The notes beneath the pieces are model-generated. The model was given only the letters and a program-made list of their open reading frames with translations. It did not search any database and was not told the origin of the DNA. From positions 69,793-133,792 of the forward strand of contig DATDEX010000279.1 in NCBI GenBank assembly GCA_036522895.1: a DNA stretch of 64,000 nucleotides. The letters are read 5' to 3'. This DNA is from Candidatus Eiseniibacteriota bacterium (GTDB lineage: Bacteria > Eisenbacteria > RBG-16-71-46). A program made the position numbers and the translations under genes. Each line of letters begins with the position of its first letter. The first letter of the stretch is position 1. Positions 3,141-13,793 of the stretch are shown here, piece by piece.

Positions 3141-4844
3141 CTACTTGCTTTCGACTACGGGCGCCTGGGCCGGTCTTCCCGCGAGCCACTGCAGTACCCT
3201 CGGAAAGGGATCCGGAATCGCTAGTGACAGGTCGGCTGCCATCAGTCTGGCGCGCGTCGGTTTCCCGATGTTCGGGTACTTCTGGCACTCGGCTTGGTAG
3301 GCCCTTTCACCGAGCACTCCCCGCAAGTGATCCTCGAAGTTCCGCGAAAGTTCCCACACTTTCAACGACCCGTCCGACTTCTCAAGGGCCTTAAGGCTGG
3401 CATTGAAGGTCCGCTCACTGTCTCGATCATCTTTGAAGTCCGTTGAGTCAGAATCGAAGACCGCGCCGACTGGGATCCCGAACGAAGACGTGATCGCAAT
3501 GAACTCAGGTAGATTGCGCTTGCCACCGACCTCAACGATCGTCGCACCATCTCGATCGAGATCCACGCCGAGCCGCCTTGCGTACTCGGGCAATGCCAGT
3601 TTCTCGGTGTCGCCTTCCACAAACAACACGCGTGAAGCAAAGAAGAGCTCGTTGCGCTCAGGGTCGAGTTCCTTTAGCAGCTTCTCCCGGCGCTTGGGAT
3701 CACTCGGCAAAGCGGAGGGCGTTGCAAGCGTCCCGGCCGGCCCCCGACGAAGGATGACCACGTCGGTGTAGTCCGGGACTGCGACAAAGTGCGTTGAGTG
3801 TGTGGTGTAGATGACCTGATTGGTCCTGCCAATCTCGCGAAGCGTTCGGTAAAGAGACCGTTGCATCTGCGGGTGTAGGAACATCTCAGGCTCTTCGATC
3901 AGAATGATCGCACCCTGTCTACGTCGCTGCTCAAATGCTCGGAGGATCGCGAGCACCAAGGCGTTCTGCACTCCTTCACCAAGCTCCGTCGCGCTAATCG
4001 AGAAGCCCCCCTCGCGGACGCGCAAGTCGAGAGACTTGTAGAAGTCCATCGAATCAAACGGGGAAAAGAAGAAGTCCAGCTTCTCGGAGTCCGTCGAAGG
4101 ATCGAATCCTAGCTGATGAAGCGCGTTGTCCTTGATCGCCTTCTCCAGCGCTACGAGATCCGTGGTTCGAAGGACTTTGAGCGCTTCTCCCATAAGCTCT
4201 TGGAATCTCTCAAGTCGAGGCATCTCAACTTGGCCTCCACCGGGGCCCGCGCTCGTAATCGTGTTCTTGGGATCCCGCAGCCCGCGATCAATGTCTTCGA
4301 GCAGCGGCCGGAGCAGCGAGTACCGCGCACCAGGAAGATGCTCCTTGAGGCTGCGATTCGTTCCAATGTAGATCAGTGGAACCGCATCGCGCACGTCGCT
4401 CGGTATGCCAACGACTGGCTCGTACTTGTGTTGCTCGCCCTTCCTGGGCGGTTTGCCGACAACCATGACCGCCCCGCCCTTGCGGTCGATGCAATCTTGC
4501 TCAAGCCTGCGTTCGCCCTTTCGTGAGCCGATCTTGTAGCGCGTCCATTTGAACGTCACTCCAAACACGTCGGAGGGCGGAGCTCCCTTCACCTTGTTAA
4601 AGGCAATGGCGGGATCGAATTTCAAGGCGATCTCGATGTCAGTCGAGGGCTCGCGTAAGTAGACGTCGTCCTCCACAAACGAACTTGAGGACACCCAATC
4701 GCGCCCCATTACACGCCGAATCGCTTCAAGCAGGTTGCTCTTGCCCGCATTGTTAGGACCCACGAGCGCGCAGCCCTGTGGCAGCTCTAGGTCGACATCG
4801 CGAAGTGAGCGAAAGCCTTTGACGGTGACGTGGGAAATACGCAT
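3141..4844 (-). CDS. OLD-family ATP-dependent endonuclease (N-terminal ABC-type ATPase + C-terminal TOPRIM)
   Basis: Walker A GPNNAGKS near the N-terminus; ABC signature/Walker B region ILIEEPEMFLHP; C-terminal TOPRIM motif LFVEGDTEKLALPEY followed by DSDS. 567 aa, typical OLD/GajA-like size. No UvrD partner adjacent. Confidence 0.85.
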   Translation of the reverse strand: MRISHVTVKGFRSLRDVDLELPQGCALVGPNNAGKSNLLEAIRRVMGRDWVSSSSFVEDDVYLREPSTDIEIALKFDPAIAFNKVKGAPPSDVFGVTFKWTRYKIGSRKGERRLEQDCIDRKGGAVMVVGKPPRKGEQHKYEPVVGIPSDVRDAVPLIYIGTNRSLKEHLPGARYSLLRPLLEDIDRGLRDPKNTITSAGPGGGQVEMPRLERFQELMGEALKVLRTTDLVALEKAIKDNALHQLGFDPSTDSEKLDFFFSPFDSMDFYKSLDLRVREGGFSISATELGEGVQNALVLAILRAFEQRRRQGAIILIEEPEMFLHPQMQRSLYRTLREIGRTNQVIYTTHSTHFVAVPDYTDVVILRRGPAGTLATPSALPSDPKRREKLLKELDPERNELFFASRVLFVEGDTEKLALPEYARRLGVDLDRDGATIVEVGGKRNLPEFIAITSSFGIPVGAVFDSDSTDFKDDRDSERTFNASLKALEKSDGSLKVWELSRNFEDHLRGVLGERAYQAECQKYPNIGKPTRARLMAADLSLAIPDPFPRVLQWLAGRPAQAPVVESK

Positions 4845-4891: not shown

Positions 4892-5581
4892 CTAGACAGC
4901 ACCTGCGTTCCGCAGTGGATGCCTAGAGATCTGTGCGCGCAGGTGCTGCGTGCTAGCCGCGAGGTAGAGCGTCGTCGACTTGATGTCGCTGTGCCCCATC
5001 ATCCTCAAGAGAGCGTAAATATCGCAGCCGCCTTCGAGCATCAAGGTCGCGAAGGTGTGGCGCAGAGTGTGTAGGTGGAAGCGGGGCGTGGGTGCCTTCT
5101 GCAGAGACACGATTACCCGTCGGAGGCCATCGACGGAGAGGACCTCGTCACGTCGGACTGACGTGAAGACCTCGGCACAGCGCTTGCCTGTTGCCTTCCG
5201 CTCCTCAAGGTAGCGCCGCAAGGTTCCTGCAAGGGCGGGCTGCACGGGCACATAGTGATCCTTTGAGCCCTTGCCCTGGCGCACGAGAGTGGATCGCCCA
5301 TCTAGATCAAGGTCGGTGAGGACCAGTCGTAAGAGCTCCGTGCGACGGAGACCGGCATACAGACACGTCGCGAGCAGCGCACGATTGCGGCTGTGGTGGA
5401 ACCGTGAACCGGTCCTGGCGTTCGCCACCAGTTCGAGGAGCCGCTGGGCCTCCTGAAGGGAGAGCCGTGCCGGCAGTCGCCGCTCGAGCCGTGGTAGGCC
5501 GAGCGGACGCGCGCCGGGATGCGAGCTGCTCTTGAGCATGGGCGCTGGACGTGGCAGCCGCCGGACCCACGTCCAGCACAC
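4892..5581 (-). CDS. Tyrosine recombinase, catalytic domain only (short integrase/invertase-like or N-terminally truncated)
   Basis: C-terminal HTLRHTFATLMLEGG...LLGHSDIKSTTLYL (R-H-R-Y catalytic pattern). No N-terminal core-binding domain. An in-frame stop lies 4 codons upstream of the Met. The IS3 element begins ~50 bp upstream. Confidence 0.75.
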   Translation of the reverse strand: MCWTWVRRLPRPAPMLKSSSHPGARPLGLPRLERRLPARLSLQEAQRLLELVANARTGSRFHHSRNRALLATCLYAGLRRTELLRLVLTDLDLDGRSTLVRQGKGSKDHYVPVQPALAGTLRRYLEERKATGKRCAEVFTSVRRDEVLSVDGLRRVIVSLQKAPTPRFHLHTLRHTFATLMLEGGCDIYALLRMMGHSDIKSTTLYLAASTQHLRAQISRHPLRNAGAV

Positions 5582-5687
5582 GGCACATCGTCAGCACGCT
5601 GTGCTCTCAGCGGTGAGCCTTTGGAGTGCCCCCTGATCTGAGGACCACCGGATATGGCAGGATTCCCCGGTCCACGGAGGATCCTGC

Positions 5688-5951
5688 ATGCGGAAGAGCC
5701 GGTTCACGGACGAGCAGATCGTCGCCATCGTTCGCGAGAGCGAGGGCATGACGGTCGAGCAGTGCGCGAAGAAGCACGGCATCACCCCGACGACGCTGTT
5801 CCGGTGGCGCAAGCGGTTCGGGGGCCTCGACGCCAGCCAGGCCGCGGAGTTGCGGCAACTGCAGGCGGAGAACGCGCGACTGAAGAAGCTGCTGGTGCAG
5901 CGCGAGCTCGACATCGACATCCTGCGGGAGATCAACGCAAAAAAATGGTGA
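5688..5951 (+). CDS. IS3-family transposase OrfA (HTH)
   Basis: MRKSRFTDEQIVAIVRE...TLFRWRKRF plus leucine heptads. Ends INAKKW* on the A7G motif. Confidence 0.85.
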   Translation: MRKSRFTDEQIVAIVRESEGMTVEQCAKKHGITPTTLFRWRKRFGGLDASQAAELRQLQAENARLKKLLVQRELDIDILREINAKKW

Positions 5952-6880
5952 GCGCACAGGCTCGCCGCGAACAAGTGGACTTCGCCGTCGGTCGTGGGGC
6001 GTCGGTCCGCCGATCCTGTGCGCTGCTGCAGGTGAGCCGTTCGGCGCTGGGCTACACGAGTACGATGCCGGCCCGCGATGCAGAGTTGGCGACCGAGTTG
6101 ATCGAGATCTCGGCGGCGCACGCGGCCTACGGGCATCGGTTCGCCTGGGCGTTGCTGCGGCGTCGCCAGTGGCGGGTGAACAAGAAGCGGGTGCGCCGGG
6201 TGTGGCGGGCGCTGGGATTGCACGTGCGCAAGAAGAAGCGCCGGAAGATTCACACCGGCCAGGCGCGGGTATTCGCGGCGACGGGACCGAACCAAGTCTG
6301 GGCGTACGACTTCACGCTCGATCGCTGTGCCAACGGGCAGGTGCTGAAGTCGCTGTCGATCGTGGACGAGTGGACCCGCGAGTGCCTGGCCATCGAGGTC
6401 GGCTCGTCGCTGACCGCCGTGCGCGTCATCGCCGTGCTCGAGCGGCTGTTCCGGCAGTACGGGGCCCCGCAGGTGTTGAGGAGCGACAACGGCCCCGAGT
6501 TCATCGCACGGGCCCTGAAGATCTGGACATTGCTGCACCACAGCGAGACGGCGACGATCGACCCCGGCAAGCCGTGGCAGAATGGCAGCGTCGAGAGCTT
6601 CCATGCGACGTTTCGACGCGAGTGCCTGGACGCCGAGTACTTCGCGCACTTGCGCGAGGCGAAGATCCTGATTGAGCAGTGGCGGTGGGAGTACAACACG
6701 CAGCGGCCGCACAGCAGCCTCGGCTATCGCACGCCGGCGGAAGTCGGCGGAGAGGCCCGCGCGGCAATGATGTCTAAGTCGAGTGGCCCCGAGATCGGCG
6801 ATCCTGGGGCAACCTTGGAAGCCGCAGTCGAGGGAAACCAAGTCGAAGCTCACCCCATCACGCCGGAGACCCTGTCATAG
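5945..6880 (+). CDS. IS3-family transposase OrfB (DDE integrase core). Expressed as an OrfAB fusion by a -1 frameshift.
   Basis: Frame of ORF 5654..6880 downstream of the slippery site. rve-domain motifs; C-terminal GYRTPAEV. Confidence 0.8.
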   Translation: MVSAQARREQVDFAVGRGASVRRSCALLQVSRSALGYTSTMPARDAELATELIEISAAHAAYGHRFAWALLRRRQWRVNKKRVRRVWRALGLHVRKKKRRKIHTGQARVFAATGPNQVWAYDFTLDRCANGQVLKSLSIVDEWTRECLAIEVGSSLTAVRVIAVLERLFRQYGAPQVLRSDNGPEFIARALKIWTLLHHSETATIDPGKPWQNGSVESFHATFRRECLDAEYFAHLREAKILIEQWRWEYNTQRPHSSLGYRTPAEVGGEARAAMMSKSSGPEIGDPGATLEAAVEGNQVEAHPITPETLS

Positions 6881-7073
6881 CCGATGGTCCGAGGATCGGG
6901 GACACTCCACCTTGACGAACTCGTACGTCCCGCGGACTCGACCAGTGCTCGGCTTCGTGGACATCGGCATTGCCCTCCCGGGCTGCTAGCATGCCATCAG
7001 CTGTCCACCAATCCCTGGGATCTCCACCAACTTGCGTATCTGTCGATAGTGCTGTTATCCACAGGAGGATGAG

Positions 7074-7823
7074 ATGGCCGCACGTCCAAGCGTGGTGCAC
7101 GGTACTCTTCGCGTACTGCTGCATGACACGCTGCGCACCATTGTGCATGACACGACGGTCGTGCGGGACACACTCACGGCGTTTAAGGGAGCGGTCCCCT
7201 CCCCGCTGCGCGTTGAACTGCTTGACCACTTCGTCGCGAAGGACTGGATCAACGTCGCAGTCGCTCTCGGGGCAGCTTGGTTGGGCGCGTGGATTGGTGC
7301 GAGGCTGACGAGAAAGGCAAGCATCGAGGCGTTTGAGAATGAGCAAAGCACCCGCCACAGGGACGCCGCCGACAGATTCCGGCGGCGTGTTCTGAGCAAT
7401 CTGCGCCGCGTTGCGCGGCTGTGTGGGGAGCTGCAGACCCACGAGCCCATGAAGGCTTTCCGCGAGACGGTAGGCGAGGAACTCGAAGTCGCGTGGAACT
7501 TGTACTACCACGTTGCCGACCCGATCTTCTTTTCATCGCGGAACGATCTACCGGAGCGCATCGACGCATTCTTCGTGCGCATTCATTCGCTCGCCGAGCA
7601 CATCAAGGCGATCCGCGCCGAGACAACCTCGGCAGTTGTCGGAGGGCAGTCGGCGGGGGCTATGGGGTTCGTCTACCTGCCGCACGGATCGCTTCCAGAT
7701 CGACGCAAGCGGGTGTCAGAAGAAGCCACGGCGCTGAACAGTCAGGCGATGGCTCTCTTAGGAGAGATTGAGCCGCAGTCTACCGAAACACCCGCTGAGT
7801 CGGGAGGCGAGATGAAGCAATAA
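7074..7823 (+). CDS. Hypothetical protein with one N-proximal TM helix
   Basis: Strong RBS AGGAGG 9 nt upstream of the ATG. Hydrophobic segment INVAVALGAAWLGAWIGARL. No recognisable family. Confidence 0.6.
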   Translation: MAARPSVVHGTLRVLLHDTLRTIVHDTTVVRDTLTAFKGAVPSPLRVELLDHFVAKDWINVAVALGAAWLGAWIGARLTRKASIEAFENEQSTRHRDAADRFRRRVLSNLRRVARLCGELQTHEPMKAFRETVGEELEVAWNLYYHVADPIFFSSRNDLPERIDAFFVRIHSLAEHIKAIRAETTSAVVGGQSAGAMGFVYLPHGSLPDRRKRVSEEATALNSQAMALLGEIEPQSTETPAESGGEMKQ

Positions 7824-7848
7824 CGTTGCCCGACTCCCTCGGACGCGC

Positions 7849-8811
7849 CTAGAGCGGCGGCTTGTTCGGTCCCGGCCCAATCACAGACTCTATGCGGTGC
7901 TGTAGCTTCAGTTTGAACACGGCGCAACCGTCGGCCGAATCGTCCCAGCCCAGAAAGTTGAAGTGGGCGACGTCAAAGTGCAGTCGCTTCTTGTCGAGCG
8001 TCGCTTGCTTGCATGTCCAGATCACCGGCAGGCCGAGACCGAGGGCAAACCCCGCTTCAAAGTAGACACCACCACGAGAACCGGTGAAGTCCGCCACGAT
8101 GAATCGGCTTTGACGAATCTGCGCAATGATCTCGTCGTCGATCCGGTTCACGTGCTCGTGCAGGTTGATGACTTGCGGCTCGTACCCGGCGTCACGGATG
8201 GCTGCCTGAAGGCCATCGTCTCGTAGGGTCTCGAGCCCGGGGTGGAACCACATGGCCACGAACCCTACGCGGCTTGTGCTTGGCTTGTGGCGCATTTCCG
8301 CGAGGCGCGCCCATCCTGGGGCGGCAATCTTCACTTGCGTAACGTTGTTCACAAGTACCGTGGGATTCTTCACCTGAAGCTGGCCAAGATCGCTGCCAAG
8401 GTACTCCTGCGTCAGGTAGGCCAGCTCGACCGCATCCCACGCCTGCGTCCGGGCGAGCAGGCTTGGACTATCACATTGAACCGGAATAAGACGACCTGGC
8501 GCCGGGCTGGTATGCGCCAAGATCGCGAGGAGGCGATCGCCCTTCTCGGCTACACTCAAGGGTCGCATTGCGAGCAGGCGCGGCACCTGCGGAGAAGTAA
8601 AGCGAGTCCTTGGGTTCTCCGAGAGATAGCCAGAGATCGTCGCGCGCTGCGTGTCGCCGACCTTTGGCGAGGCCAGCAGGTCTCTCGCTTCTTCAGTCGT
8701 GGTGAACGTGCCGCAACGTGGGCAGCGGACGTCGAGGTCAGTGCTCATCGCATTCGGAGATTCAACCCTCGCATCCTCACGTTGGCATACGGGGCAGATT
8801 GAGCGGTCCAT
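7849..8811 (-). CDS. Zn-ribbon + nucleoside 2-deoxyribosyltransferase-like (DRT/TIR-clan) domain protein
   Basis: N-terminal CPVC...CPRC zinc ribbon. C-terminal VGFVAMWF ... IVADFTGSRGGVYFEAGFALGLGLPVI resembles the NDT motif D-x-GT-x-FE-x-GyA-x-GKPV. Confidence 0.6.
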   Translation of the reverse strand: MDRSICPVCQREDARVESPNAMSTDLDVRCPRCGTFTTTEEARDLLASPKVGDTQRATISGYLSENPRTRFTSPQVPRLLAMRPLSVAEKGDRLLAILAHTSPAPGRLIPVQCDSPSLLARTQAWDAVELAYLTQEYLGSDLGQLQVKNPTVLVNNVTQVKIAAPGWARLAEMRHKPSTSRVGFVAMWFHPGLETLRDDGLQAAIRDAGYEPQVINLHEHVNRIDDEIIAQIRQSRFIVADFTGSRGGVYFEAGFALGLGLPVIWTCKQATLDKKRLHFDVAHFNFLGWDDSADGCAVFKLKLQHRIESVIGPGPNKPPL

Positions 8812-8829
8812 CGTGGGAGCCTACGGCTC

Positions 8830-9100: not shown

Positions 9101-9172
9101 TACTGTGCCTTGCTGGTGGGCGCCCGCTTGGGCGAAGCGCACGCGCGCCCGGCACGAGAACCGAGGAGGAGA

Positions 9173-9599
9173 CATGGGGCTGCTGGACAAGCTGAAGTTC
9201 CAACTCTGGGACGACGTCGGCGCCGTCGTCGACCTGATCGCGAAGTGGCGCCCACGCAAGTGTGAAACCGAGAAGGACTTCGAGAAGTCGCTGTACGCCT
9301 ACCTGCACGAGGCGTTCGAGGACACGCAGATCACGAAGCAGTTCGCGCAGGGTCGCATGCGCGCGGACCTCATGGTTGGGGGGAAGGTCATCATCGAGCT
9401 GAAGCACAACCTCGATTCCACGGCGAAGCTCCAGAGGCTCATCGGCCAACTCAGCCAGTACGACTCCTGGAAGGGGCGCGTCATCGTTCTCTTGACCGGG
9501 GAGACGGAGCCGAACCTTCTGAAAGAGCTGAAGCAGTTCATCAGGAAGCAGGGGTGGGACGACCTGGATGGCGAGAAGGTGACAATCACTCAGAAGTAG
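9173..9599 (+). CDS. Hypothetical small protein (142 aa), possible PD-(D/E)xK-like motif
   Basis: RBS GGAGGAG 6 nt before the ATG at 9173. D-x(n)-E-L-K segment RADLMVGGKVIIELK. The upstream part of ORF 8718..9599 is Arg-rich junk. Confidence 0.55.
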
Positions 9600-10612: not shown

Positions 10613-10887
10613 GCCTTCGGAGCGGCCCCCGCGCCCGTCGGGGCTACTCAAGTACATCGCGCTCGAGCGCTTGGACGCCCTCCGGCTCCGACACCAACGT
10701 CGCCTCCGGTCTCACGCAGAAAGAAGTTGATAGCCTCCGCCAGCTCCTGGAGAAGGAGTGTGGCGTGGTCTGGTCGAACGCTGAAGCCTGGCAGCGAGCG
10801 AGAGAGCTCCTGGCCTTCGCCAAGATCCCGCTCCGGGCGCTGCCAAGTCAGTCTGAGGACGAAGCGCACGATGGTCGAGGGCATTGA
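10588..10887 (+). CDS. Small conserved ORF, family copy A
   Basis: C-terminal ~50 aa LTQKEVDSLRQLLEKECGVVWSNAEAWQRARELLAFAKI is shared with ORFs 11912..12196 and 15598..15798. Confidence 0.45.
   Translation: MDGWGGCLSLRSGPRARRGYSSTSRSSAWTPSGSDTNVASGLTQKEVDSLRQLLEKECGVVWSNAEAWQRARELLAFAKIPLRALPSQSEDEAHDGRGH
10683..10832 (+). repeat. ~150-bp direct repeat, copy 1 (about 90% identical to 11996..12147)
   Basis: Read directly: ctccggctccgacaccaacgtcgcctccggtctcacgcagaaagaagttgat... versus ctccggctcagacatcagcgtcgcctccgctctcacccagaaagaagttgat... Confidence 0.7.
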
Positions 10888-10918: not shown

Positions 10919-11533
10919 ATGAGTACCAAGACCATGGGTTCAGATCCTGAGCTCAAGCATGCCAAGACGGTCTTTCTGGCAAACGCGCGAGCGCTCAAGA
11001 AGCTCGCGAGAGATCCGAAGCACCGCAACGCACTGGTCTTCGTCGTGGCGAGCGCGTTCATCGAGTATCTGAGTAAACTAGTGTTCACCGGCACAGGTGC
11101 GAAGGAATACAAGAAGTTCGTGCGCTCGTACCTCGCCAGGACCAGGAAACGGTACCGCACCTTTACCTACCGGTTCACGGGTGCGCCCGCAAAGCGAGAT
11201 CTGCCGGAGCAAATGTACCACGTGCTTAGATGTGGAGCGGTGCACGGCTATTCACTCGTTCCAGATCAAAGAGCCATAGCTCACGGGGGGCGGACGAGAT
11301 CAATAGTGGTAGCTCATCGGATCTCGAAGAATACCCACCTGTCGCTCAGATACCTTGGCGGGCAACCGACCTGCGTCTTCATTGCCGAAGATTTCGCGGC
11401 GGATATTGAGGCCACGGTCCAGCACATCATCAGCGAGGCTAGGAAGAACAAGGCGCTGGCCAAGCGGATTGCCGACCGCATGAGAAAGCATCCGCCGATA
11501 CAGGGCGGGTTTGCCCTGACGGCAAAACGCTAG
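10919..11533 (+). CDS. Hypothetical protein (204 aa) in a lower-GC patch, flanked by the 150-bp direct repeats
   Basis: Complete ORF with a basic C-terminus. Local GC is clearly lower than the surroundings. Confidence 0.55.
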   Translation: MSTKTMGSDPELKHAKTVFLANARALKKLARDPKHRNALVFVVASAFIEYLSKLVFTGTGAKEYKKFVRSYLARTRKRYRTFTYRFTGAPAKRDLPEQMYHVLRCGAVHGYSLVPDQRAIAHGGRTRSIVVAHRISKNTHLSLRYLGGQPTCVFIAEDFAADIEATVQHIISEARKNKALAKRIADRMRKHPPIQGGFALTAKR

Positions 11534-11911: not shown

Positions 11912-12196
11912 ATGGTCTTACTCGTAACCACGATCCCTATGACCCAGAGCCACAGTCTCCTTGATACCCCTCCTGAAGCCGCCCCCGAACCAAGCTCCGG
12001 CTCAGACATCAGCGTCGCCTCCGCTCTCACCCAGAAAGAAGTTGATCGCCTCCGCCAGCTCCTGGAGAGGGAGTGTGGGGTCGCGTTGTCGAACGCGGAA
12101 GCCTGGCAGCGAGCAAGAGAGCTCCTGGCCTTCGCCAAGATCCTACTGGAATCGCTTCCTCCCAGACGGTCAGGCTCGGGCCTATCTCGGCTGTAG
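11912..12196 (+). CDS. Small conserved ORF, family copy B
   Basis: ...LTQKEVDRLRQLLERECGVALSNAEAWQRARELLAFAKILL. Confidence 0.45.
   Translation: MVLLVTTIPMTQSHSLLDTPPEAAPEPSSGSDISVASALTQKEVDRLRQLLERECGVALSNAEAWQRARELLAFAKILLESLPPRRSGSGLSRL
11996..12147 (+). repeat. ~150-bp direct repeat, copy 2
   Basis: See copy 1. Confidence 0.7.
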
Positions 12197-12902: not shown

Positions 12903-13793
12903 GTGAACTTCGATCCTCCATCTCCTGCCAGCAAAGTTGCCTTCGTCAGCTCGACTGTGTACGACCTTGAACGCGAGCGCTCACTCCTCCGCTCCGTCCT
13001 CGAGGACTTCGTCGGTCCCGTGCGATTCACCGCTCTGCTGAGCGAAGACCCAGCATTTCCCCTGACTCCCCTCGATCTAGCCGAGAAACATTCCTATCAG
13101 ATCTGCCTCGACAAGATTGCCGAGGCTGACTATTTCCTTCTCCTTATCAAGAATCGGTACGGCGCCACCAATGTCCCGGATGGCGACGACATGATCTCGA
13201 TCACTCACCGCGAATACCGGGAGGCGTACCGGCTTCGCCTACCGCTCTTTACGTTTGTCGATCGTAGGACGTGGAACGCGCGAAATCGTCATAAGAAGGG
13301 CAACGTCCAGCGATTCGTCCCGAGCACCCAGTTGCGAGTGTTTGACCTTTTGGATGAAATCACCCGTCAGCCGCGAAGCATGTGGCTTAACATCTACCGA
13401 AACCCCAGGGACATTCGGACCGTTGTCGAGAGGGCACTCTTTTCCTTCGACGATTCGGTCTTCGTGGCCGATGTTACGATCCCCGATGGAACGATCGTGC
13501 ACGCGAACCAGACGTTCGAGAAGATCTGGGAGATCCGCAATAATGGTTGTGTGATATGGGAGAACCGGCGACTGCAGGAGGACAATACTGGGGCTTCGGG
13601 CCTCGTGCCGGCCGAGGGGAGGATAGAAGTTCCGCGAACTCTCCCCGGAAGCACGGTGAGACTTAGTGTCACCTTCAAGGCACCGCCATATCCATGCACC
13701 TGTGAGTCCTATTGGAAGATGATCGGCCCCGATGGACGCCTTCTGTTCCCGAACAAGAAGGGTCTGTATTGTCGTATTAAGGTCGTCTTTTGA
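12903..13793 (+). CDS. DUF4062 (TIR-like) N-terminal domain + Nbr1-FW-like C-terminal domain protein
   Basis: VAFVSSTVYDLERERSLLRSVLE (DUF4062 signature). C-terminal VTIPDGTIVHANQTFEKIWEIRNNGCVIWEN (FW-domain pattern with conserved Trp). Confidence 0.6.
   Translation: MNFDPPSPASKVAFVSSTVYDLERERSLLRSVLEDFVGPVRFTALLSEDPAFPLTPLDLAEKHSYQICLDKIAEADYFLLLIKNRYGATNVPDGDDMISITHREYREAYRLRLPLFTFVDRRTWNARNRHKKGNVQRFVPSTQLRVFDLLDEITRQPRSMWLNIYRNPRDIRTVVERALFSFDDSVFVADVTIPDGTIVHANQTFEKIWEIRNNGCVIWENRRLQEDNTGASGLVPAEGRIEVPRTLPGSTVRLSVTFKAPPYPCTCESYWKMIGPDGRLLFPNKKGLYCRIKVVF

Follow-up and report, generated by a model that had tools for sequence, protein, structure and literature searches.

The locus considered here raises two questions, what the protein encoded by ORF A does, and whether ORF A and its neighbour ORF B form a functional unit. 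Both lie in a window (the whole stretch of DNA that was analysed) of 64,000 nucleotides from Candidatus Eiseniibacteriota, and both are real genes, as given in the preliminary description of this DNA. ORF B (249 aa) is at 7074..7823 on the plus strand and ORF A at 7849..8811, including the stop codon, on the minus strand, such that the two are convergent with 25 nt separating their stop codons. ORF A encodes a Zn-ribbon / winged-helix / NDT-TIR-like protein of 320 aa. In the public record the start is at M22, giving a protein of 299 aa in which the first CxxC is lost. The 320-aa start is backed by homologues, and judged by these the deposited MAG model begins 21 codons late and deletes half of the zinc site. 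The public label of nucleoside 2-deoxyribosyltransferase is also probably misleading.

ORF A has 3722 homologues at E<=1e-3, nearly all of 300-330 aa and full length, and a profile of the N-terminal part finds ~3,700 clusters at 50% identity. The combination of a Zn-ribbon with an NDT-like domain had been called unusual, but it is a conserved architecture of thousands of proteins, spread sporadically over more than 15 phyla and including proteins from plasmids and prophages. There is no dedicated Pfam or NCBIfam model for the family, no whole-length PADLOC model for ORF A, and the family name is absent from the defence catalogues searched. No related solved structure was found in single-sequence or profile searches, and the literature on this architecture gave only the analogues discussed below (retron effectors and Swarozyc), with nothing on the family itself.

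The C-terminal domain (residues 179-320; 7852..8277, minus strand) is NDT/DNPH1/TIR-like, in the TIR-DrHyd-SLOG clade. It had already been placed in the NDT/TIR clan, and there is now good support for this. PF05014 matches residues 217-270 with an E value of 2.9e-4 and 21.4 bits, under the Pfam gathering threshold of 28.8, and matches all 48 of 48 family members at E<=0.05, the best E being 6.5e-7. In PADLOC the match is to the CBASS model PDLC00733, labelled 'Effector TIR', over residues 209-293 (E 3.3e-12), and 48 of the 48 members match it likewise. With Foldseek the domain matches NDT, DNPH1, BcmB, SARM1-TIR and SPARTA-TIR, each with prob 1.00; for 8pqt (CtNDT), 8rps, 4p5d and 4jen (BcmB), again all at prob 1.00, the target-normalised TM is 0.5-0.66, and for the TIR of SPARTA TIR-APAZ there are 145-151 columns at rmsd 3.3-3.9. 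Of the TIR NADase effectors (SARM1, SPARTA TIR-APAZ, CBASS/Pycsar), those of SARM1 and SPARTA are structural matches, yet Pfam gives no TIR family (TIR, TIR_2 or TIR-like) for ORF A at E<=0.1, and none for any of the 48 members. Some relatives of ORF A carry a precomputed PF05014 annotation. The AF2 model of ORF A has pLDDT 92.3 and pTM 0.71, and is not the unrelated Rossmann-like fold that the preliminary description had allowed for. On these models the domain is predicted to have the NDT / DNPH1 / TIR fold, with E252 as the retained candidate for the catalytic Glu.

In the NDT fold the catalytic Glu is at the start of the helix that follows the central strand (E98 in LlNDT, E93 in Rcl). The family profile 'FvvaDftGqrgGVYFEaGfAlGlglpViW' aligns without gaps to 'VVVAEVTQPSLGVGYELGRAVALGKPIL' of rat Rcl, which puts E252 of ORF A opposite the Glu of 'GVGYELG', the established catalytic Glu of Rcl/DNPH1, and the nearly invariant R246 opposite the Ser by which Rcl binds the 5'-phosphate. 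The codon for Glu252, the predicted catalytic nucleophile/acid, is at 8056..8058 on the minus strand, and the residue is invariant in the 48 homologues together with F184, A186, F189, H220, I224, D225, D226, D241, T243, G244, the rest of G248-E252, H278, F279, D280, W289 and R306. The motif first reported for this region is present, as 'YFEAGFALGLGLPV', but its true form is FE-x-G-x-A-x-G-x-G-x-PV, two residues being missing from the first version. The active-site segment '...A(D/E)xT....G..(Y/F)E.G.A..LG.P(V/I)...' of NDT, DNPH1 (Rcl) and MilB-BcmB is thus also found, gapless, in ORF A, which differs from these proteins in its 178 extra N-terminal residues. The conserved strand-1 Tyr of the NDT family is Phe in ORF A, and the invariant H220 and HFD278-280 are absent from the classical NDT family.

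The N-terminal module begins with a Zn-ribbon at residues 1-39 (8695..8811, minus strand), with the two CxxC at 8785-8796 and 8713-8724. The CxxC...CxxC ribbon was correctly recognised in the first reading: C6-x2-C9 and C30-x2-C33 are invariant in the 48 homologues, and the region is three-stranded in AF2 models. Pfam matches at this end are weak, to Zn-ribbons of the Com/Lar/PaaD type, and phrog_6417, a 'translational regulator', matches the ribbon region with E 6.5e-5. A helical linker and winged-helix-like domain, with a conserved RQxANxSGWxRE helix, make up residues 40-178 (8278..8694, minus strand). Modelled alone, the N-terminal part has pLDDT 95.1 and pTM 0.88. The winged-helix matches given by Foldseek, to MarR/PadR proteins, are weak and all non-significant (E 0.3-2, prob up to 0.91, ~85-90 columns, rmsd 3.6-4.1). 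The same N-terminal module is present in protein P0194 (hmmsearch E 5.8e-34; hhalign prob 99.8 over residues 1-176), there joined to a Pfam TIR_2 domain above threshold, and in P0133, with an unrelated helical C-terminus. The module is thus exchangeable, being joined to the NDT-like domain in the one case and to canonical TIR in the other. Effector swapping on one sensor is typical of immune sensor-effector proteins.

We suggest that ORF A is, on balance, a stand-alone sensor-effector of the abortive-infection type, serving in biological conflict with phages or mobile elements, in which an engaged N-terminal module would cause the N-glycosidase domain to deplete NAD+ or nucleotides. The N-terminal module would recognise a cue derived from the invader, which could be nucleic acid or else a phage protein in oligomeric form, and engagement of the cue would gather the C-terminal domains together. 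In TIR and NDT enzymes active sites are completed only by dimer or oligomer interfaces. The activated N-glycosidase would then cut the base-ribose bond either of NAD+, in the manner of TIR-like enzymes (compare Swarozyc and the effector of retron-Ec86), or of a different nucleotide, and with the pool drained the infected cell would stop growing. Consistent with this sensor-effector reading are the retention of E252 and of the invariant polar set (H220, D225/D226, D241, R246, H278, D280), the patchy presence in phyla, plasmids and prophages, the lack of a gene partner, the sharing of the N-terminal module with a TIR protein (P0194), and, as given below, the PHROG membership, the defence-type genes among the neighbours and the island around the window copy. 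Against a role in defence are the housekeeping neighbours and the gshA/lysS synteny discussed below, the lack of a whole-length PADLOC model, the absence of the family from the defence catalogues searched, the non-significance of the winged-helix matches and the uncertain expression of the window copy. If the inference holds, the family would be among the larger single-gene immune families still unnamed, and the C4 ribbon and winged helix would be a new sensor module for switching on nucleotide-destroying enzymes of the TIR/NDT type. It would also offer a compact model of 320 residues for how such enzymes stay off and for what is cleaved, and the presence of NDT-like and TIR domains on one sensor would give a direct handle on the interchangeability of the two folds in immunity.

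The closest analogues of ORF A would seem to be the NDT-wHTH effectors of type II retrons, and Swarozyc. Retron type II-A effectors bring about abortive infection by depletion of nucleotides or NAD+ (PMC7736814; bioRxiv 10.1101/2023.08.16.553469; PMC13276650). In the case of retron-Ec86 the NDT-like + wHTH effector requires dimerisation and E106 (bioRxiv 10.1101/2023.08.16.553469), and it depletes NAD+ (review PMC13276650). The type II-A effectors (Retron-Eco1/Ec86, Sen2 RcaT and Ec73), at ~310 aa, have NDT-like and winged-helix blocks as in ORF A, and the catalytic E106 of Ec86 is in a helix equivalent to that of E252. However the domain order is reversed, with the wHTH first and the NDT-like domain last in ORF A, which also has the C4 zinc ribbon, and apart from the fold no relationship could be detected in the sequences. 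PADLOC retron-effector models do not match ORF A, there is no RT in the island in which it lies, and no Rfam match in positions 1-24000 of the window. Assignment as a retron type II effector was rejected for the lack of an RT and of an msr-msd ncRNA match and for the reversed order. Swarozyc has a TIR-like NADase and a winged-helix AUX domain and becomes active when it assembles on the portal of the phage (bioRxiv 10.64898/2026.05.01.722283). It resembles ORF A as a single-gene TIR-like N-glycosidase joined to a recognition domain of winged-helix type, but the domain order is opposite and the Zn ribbon is found in ORF A. ORF A was not accepted as a Swarozyc (DUF4062) protein, there being no PF13271 match and an hhalign probability of only 0.2 to the DUF4062 protein of the window. 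With regard to other named systems, a CBASS effector was rejected as the window has no gene for CD-NTase, Cap2/Cap3 or SAVED/STING up to 8 kb from ORF A, and CBASS genes are absent from the most frequent neighbour families of 35 ORF A loci. Thoeris ThsB was rejected as there is no ThsA-like neighbour in the window and no conserved neighbour in 80 loci. An Argonaute partner was found neither in the window nor in the frequent neighbour families.

The architecture may be as we describe but the chemistry different, and this is the first alternative to be weighed. The C-terminal domain would be a (deoxy)nucleoside-5'-monophosphate N-glycosidase of the DNPH1/MilB/BcmB type and not a NADase, with a role either in defence, by destroying canonical nucleotides or modified ones specific to phages (for example hm-dCMP or hm-dUMP), or in clean-up of the nucleotide pool. 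In its favour, the top Foldseek matches are NDT and DNPH1 (5-hydroxymethyl-dUMP N-hydrolase), ahead of TIR, and the best viral match, in BFVD, is a 303-aa protein annotated as CMP/hmCMP (hydroxymethyl-CMP) hydrolase (E 3.6e-6); PF05014 is the only Pfam family matched by the domain, with no TIR model, and R246 is at the phosphate-binding position. However NAD+ depletion has been reported for NDT-like retron effectors (PMC13276650), so that the fold is compatible with NAD+, P0194 joins the same N-terminal module to canonical TIR, a NAD+ specialist, and the best PADLOC model for ORF A is one labelled TIR. We regard this chemistry as unlikely. A broader form of the proposal, which we think rather improbable, is that the Zn-ribbon/winged-helix is a new and portable invader-sensing module serving at least three effectors (NDT-like, TIR and helical), of which the NDT-like version acts on nucleoside monophosphates and not on NAD+. 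If so, one protein of this family could suffice for defence, by hydrolysing dNMPs either in bulk or of the phage type (for example hydroxymethylated). Such DNPH1-like immunity would be so far undescribed in bacteria.

The genomic neighbourhood bears on the sensor-effector reading and on the remaining alternatives. Among 80 ORF A loci there is no conserved neighbour of at least 70 aa and no small partner (25-110 aa), the clusters found in the latter size range being alternate frames of gshA and lysS. The lack of a conserved neighbour in 80 genomes indicates that ORF A is a single-gene unit. The neighbours are mostly ordinary housekeeping genes (lysS, ABC-F, gshA), and in two lineages the homologue directly follows gshA or lysS in the same orientation, in 6-7 species each. 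This pattern resembles stable vertical inheritance more than it does the behaviour of a fast-moving defence gene. The 271 nearest neighbours of the family include strong PADLOC matches to RM I/II/III, AriA/AAA_21 ATPases, MADS, DRT, GajB, AbiLi, PD-T4-6 and PDC-S31, and as these are raw counts of defence-like neighbours the enrichment is suggestive only. A copy on a Leptospira phage-plasmid adjoins a SEFIR protein.

The synteny in two lineages would also fit a non-catalytic regulator, in which the Zn-ribbon/winged-helix part binds DNA and the NDT-like domain senses a nucleotide, making ORF A a ligand-controlled transcription factor or a housekeeping regulator. The N-terminal domain is closest, if weakly, to MarR/PadR regulators, and TIR-DrHyd-SLOG domains are able to act as pure sensors (PMC9503650). 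We nonetheless consider a regulator improbable, as the catalytic Glu and nearby polar residues are invariant in 48 divergent members, the N-terminal module has been swapped onto a TIR domain, the distribution is patchy and includes plasmids and prophages, and no target operon is conserved beside the homologues.

The family is found in at least about 0.3% of species genomes, again in a patchy distribution, with 32 plasmid records and 15 viral or prophage contigs in IMG/VR. A further alternative is a gene that serves the mobile element. Prophages and plasmids would use it to alter the nucleotide pools of the host, or to break down the nucleotides through which the host signals in immunity. In keeping with this, ORF A belongs to a PHROG (phrog_16139, E 1.7e-36), there are the plasmid copies and the 15 viral contigs, and in Bacillus prophages the homologue is between late activator/integrase-like genes and the HNH-terminase packaging module, just upstream of the latter. 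However tblastn of ORF A against 50,697 deposited phage genomes gave zero matches, so that virulent phages seldom carry the gene. Most copies are on chromosomes and lack surrounding phage genes, and the accessory ('moron') position in prophages is also a typical one for defence genes that prophages encode. We give an element-serving or counter-defence function little weight.

ORF B was judged an independent gene. Its product has HDT repeats at the N-terminus and a single hydrophobic segment. The strong RBS noted for it is there, AGGAGGA at 7063-7069, 4 nt upstream of the ATG. The single TM claimed is less clear, as residues 58-76 reach only 1.49 (Kyte-Doolittle-19; usual cut-off 1.6), but homologues have 2.2-2.6 there, and one TM helix is plausible from the sequences. 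There are only 4 homologues of ORF B. In the contigs of a 69%-identical one the homology ends at ORF B, with no ORF A relative after it, and a 38% homologue is located in another operon. A two-gene system (effector and membrane partner, or toxin-antitoxin), as the adjacency, the convergent arrangement and the flanking mobile-element sequences might suggest, is very improbable indeed, as there are 4 homologues of ORF B against thousands for ORF A, in differing contexts and none beside an ORF A homologue, nothing like ORF B is found beside ORF A in the 80 loci, homology in related contigs breaks exactly at the gene borders, and convergent orientation excludes co-transcription. The functional pair of the preliminary description is accordingly not upheld; on the sequence comparisons the adjacency appears coincidental and ORF B an unrelated neighbour, which we judge to be a separate small membrane-associated protein beside ORF A in this island.

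With regard to the island itself, the pair had been placed between an IS3 element and an IS fragment. The IS3-family element is complete, with orfA at 5688..5951 and orfB to 6880 (Pfam HTH_Tnp_1 and rve), but support is weak for the fragment that lies upstream of ORF A, which has no Pfam match, no similarity to the IS3 of the window and only marginal tblastn matches (E ~0.01) to IS2/IS3-type transposases. A composite transposon of the IS3 and an inverted IS fragment was rejected because the IS-like remnant is not related to the IS3. The native upstream region of ORF A has been replaced by this remnant, and its expression here is thus uncertain. No tRNA features were found near the island, which includes an OLD/GajA-like nuclease, an integrase, the IS3, a serine recombinase and, 4 kb from ORF A, the DUF4062 protein of the Swarozyc family.

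ORF A (7849..8811, minus strand, 320 aa) and the convergent ORF B (7074..7823, plus strand, 249 aa) are both present as in the preliminary description, and proteins identical to them are deposited as VI504_10790 and VI504_10785; the source is a Candidatus Eisenbacteria metagenome-assembled genome. The deposited ORF A gene model begins at Met22 (299 aa) and so loses the first half of the N-terminal CxxC...CxxC noted earlier, which we find as C6-x2-C9 and C30-x2-C33. We take the 320-aa start as correct because the alignment with homologues starts at residue 1 and each of the four Zn-ribbon Cys is invariant in A1, our alignment of 48 family sequences (lowest identity to ORF A about 36%). A perfect 6-bp hairpin (GGAGCC-GTA-GGCTCC, coding strand; about 8815-8829) lies directly 5' of the start codon, and there is no obvious Shine-Dalgarno sequence in this region.

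The AlphaFold2 model from A1 (pLDDT 92.3, pTM 0.71) runs from a ribbon of three strands (residues 1-39) through a region that is helical and winged-helix-like (40-178) to a five-stranded alpha/beta domain (179-320). No Pfam, NCBIfam or PADLOC model covers the whole protein, and no solved structure related to it by sequence was found. Searched against the PDB with Foldseek, the C-terminal domain matches the Chroococcidiopsis NDT (8pqt), DNPH1/Rcl, BcmB (4jen, a CMP N-glycosidase), the SARM1 TIR and the SPARTA TIR-APAZ TIR at probability 1.00 each, with the SPARTA matches covering 145-151 columns at rmsd 3.3-3.9. PF05014 gives 21.4 bits with ORF A itself, under the threshold of 28.8, and matches all 48 relatives (best 6.5e-7), as does the PADLOC CBASS 'Effector TIR' model over the domain core (48/48, best 2.7e-16). 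The deoxyribosyltransferase-type signature is there near the C-terminus (ADFTGSRGGVYFEAGFALGLGLPVIW), with spacing FE-x-G-x-A-x-G-x-G-x-PV and not that first described. The family profile 'skFvvaDftGqrgGVYFEaGfAlGlglpViW' aligns ungapped with rat Rcl ADVVVAEVTQPSLGVGYELGRAVALGKPIL, which puts E252 on the catalytic Glu of Rcl, and the nearly invariant R246 on the Ser by which Rcl holds the 5'-phosphate. Also invariant in A1 are F184, A186 and F189 (strand 1 and its loop), H220, I224, D225, D226, D241, T243, G244, G248-V-Y-F-E252, G254, A256, G258, V263, W265, H278-F279-D280, W289, R306 and I307, so that the active-site Glu is conserved throughout. On the Foldseek, PF05014, PADLOC and Rcl evidence the reading as an unrelated Rossmann fold lacking the Glu fails, and the domain, as first proposed, is NDT-like, a member of the TIR-DrHyd-SLOG clade (PMC9503650).

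We think it slightly more probable than not that ORF A is a defence sensor-effector. The ribbon/winged-helix module would recognise nucleic acid or protein from an invader, the C-terminal domains would then self-associate, as is needed for NDT dimers and TIR assemblies, and the activated N-glycosidase would drain NAD+ or some other nucleotide and so bring about abortive infection. As the substrate, NAD+ is a little more probable than nucleoside monophosphates. Coupling a sensor to a TIR/NDT-type effector is an established principle, and there are two precedents for the mechanism. The retron-Ec86 effector, an NDT-like protein with a wHTH, forms a dimer, uses E106 in catalysis and depletes NAD+/adenine nucleotides (bioRxiv 10.1101/2023.08.16.553469; PMC7736814; PMC13276650). 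In Swarozyc, a single-gene anti-phage system, a DUF4062 TIR-like NADase carries a winged-helix AUX domain that assembles on the phage portal (2026 preprint, bioRxiv 10.64898/2026.05.01.722283). The defining partners or domains of CBASS, retrons, Thoeris and Swarozyc were looked for and not found, and we thus place ORF A outside all four, as a divergent protein within the NDT/TIR structural clade; nothing on its architecture was found in the papers searched. Among predicted viral structures, the C-terminal domain best matches a 303-aa 'CMP/hydroxymethyl-CMP hydrolase' (E 3.6e-6, rmsd 2.4, 137 columns). With this match and those to DNPH1/Rcl and BcmB on one side, and the TIR matches on the other, we regard a DNPH1/MilB-like nucleotide N-glycosidase as possible but unlikely.

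As for the putative sensor, a model of the N-terminal half by itself has pLDDT 95.1 and pTM 0.88; none of its fold matches, which are to MarR/PadR winged-helix regulators, is significant, and the ribbon weakly resembles Com/Lar-type ribbons. Searching with a profile built from residues 1-178 gave 3662 representatives at E<=1e-3 (1056 at E<=1e-10) among 50%-identity cluster representatives, most of them about 300-340 aa with an NDT-like C-terminus. In P0194, a 586-aa protein (L111, 213-1973), the module occupies residues 1-204 (hhalign probability 99.8, E 1.9e-30) and precedes a TIR_2 domain that passes the Pfam threshold (45 bits vs 28); in P0133 (459 aa) it precedes an unrelated helical region. 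A TIR domain in place of the NDT-like one on a constant module is what one would expect of a sensor with interchangeable NAD+/nucleotide-cleaving effectors. A ligand-sensing regulator, to which the winged-helix likeness might point, is improbable beside this exchange.

The defence sensor-effector would act alone. A search of 5.8 billion proteins gave 3722 relatives at E<=1e-3, and the best 120, almost all of them 300-330 aa, have query coverage of 97-100%; the family is large and unstudied, and the TIR/NDT swap is informative. A scan of one genome per species gave at least 563 loci, and the best 80 are from Proteobacteria, Verrucomicrobiota, Acidobacteriota, Chloroflexota, Planctomycetota, Ignavibacteriales, Nitrospinota, Desulfobacterota, Methylomirabilis, Hydrogenedentota and others. 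When all ORFs of at least 70 aa within 5 kb of these 80 were clustered, no neighbour family occurred in more than 13 loci (ABC-F ATPase, 13; integrases, 7; type I restriction subunits, 4-5), and a separate search found no conserved small ORFs beside the gene; it is therefore a single-gene unit. lysS and gshA, each in 7 of the 80 and each in a single lineage, lie immediately upstream on the same strand. Homologues begin 0-42 nt after gshA in Gallionellaceae/Nitrosomonadales (five loci) and 8-45 nt after lysS in Verrucomicrobiota (five loci), which suggests read-through expression from housekeeping genes; P0168, a gene call fusing the lysS C-terminus with a homologue, fits the tight spacing. The 271 nearest neighbours (two genes each side) mostly have housekeeping functions by Pfam. 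PADLOC (E<=1e-10) finds AriA/AAA_21-type ATPases, type I/II/III RM subunits, MADS components, DRT reverse transcriptase, GajB, AbiLi, PD-T4-6 and PDC-S31 among them, 20-25 of 271 by a rough, raw count not set against genomic background.

The family is also mobile, being found in 32 plasmid records and 15 IMG/VR viral contigs. In a Leptospira phage-plasmid the gene has a SEFIR-domain protein on one side and a large methyltransferase on the other, in a Hydrogenimonas plasmid it adjoins an ATPase and HNH pair, and in Bacillus prophages it is between late activator/integrase-like genes and an HNH-terminase module. ORF A matches phrog_16139 (E 1.7e-36), and the family is absent from the 50,697 deposited phage genomes searched. 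We see little chance that ORF A is an element-serving or counter-defence enzyme.

The island around ORF A has slightly lower G+C. It holds an OLD/GajA-like nuclease (3141..4844, minus strand, 567 aa; Pfam AAA_15, AAA_21 and OLD-like_TOPRIM; PADLOC GajA 1.7e-52, Old 1e-49) with no GajB-like helicase beside it, whose other neighbour is a 909-aa protein kinase extending past the window start. A short tyrosine integrase (4892..5581, minus strand), with the catalytic domain only (about 215-229 aa), abuts an IS3 element (5654..6880, plus strand) that may have truncated it. Of the two IS flanks first described, the upstream IS3 is complete (Pfam HTH_Tnp_1 and rve), and for the supposed fragment upstream of ORF A neither a Pfam match nor similarity to that IS3 was found; by tblastn it reaches IS2-type transposases only at E about 0.01. 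A small ORF (9150..9599, plus strand) has sub-threshold matches to sce7726 (NCBIfam, E 2.4e-5) and the DpnII/MboI-type restriction endonuclease fold (Pfam, E 1.1e-3) and is possibly a PD-(D/E)xK nuclease remnant. A 149-nt direct repeat (10680-10828 and 11995-12143, 1315 nt apart, 91% identical) flanks a 204-aa ORF (10919..11533); the duplicated peptide that the repeat encodes is LTQKEVDxLRQLLExECGV..SNAEAWQRARELLAFAKI. The island also has a serine recombinase and a 296-aa DUF4062 protein with an NBR1-type Ig domain (12903..13793, plus strand); as DUF4062 is reported to be a TIR-like NADase, there may be two independent TIR-clan effectors here.

ORF B is a real though rare gene, with AGGAGGA at 7063-7069, 4 nt 5' of its ATG, as the strong RBS recognised earlier. 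Its sole hydrophobic stretch (residues 58-76) scores 1.49 in a 19-residue Kyte-Doolittle window, so the single TM helix described is marginal here, and plausible because homologues score 2.2-2.6. That the two convergent genes form a pair can be dismissed as very improbable: ORF B has 4 homologues in the whole database (4 clusters), on three contigs with a 69%-identical homologue similarity to the window ends at the ORF B stop codon and the convergent ORF that follows bears no relation to ORF A, a 38%-identical homologue is in another, co-directional operon beside a 598-aa TPR protein, and on contigs with ORF A homologues at 47-57% identity similarity is confined to ORF A. Besides its hydrophobic segment, ORF B has conserved N-terminal tandem 'HDT' heptad-like repeats and a conserved GEELEVAWNLYY motif. 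A relative in another lineage is translationally coupled to a 116-aa ORF and followed by a 598-aa TPR protein.
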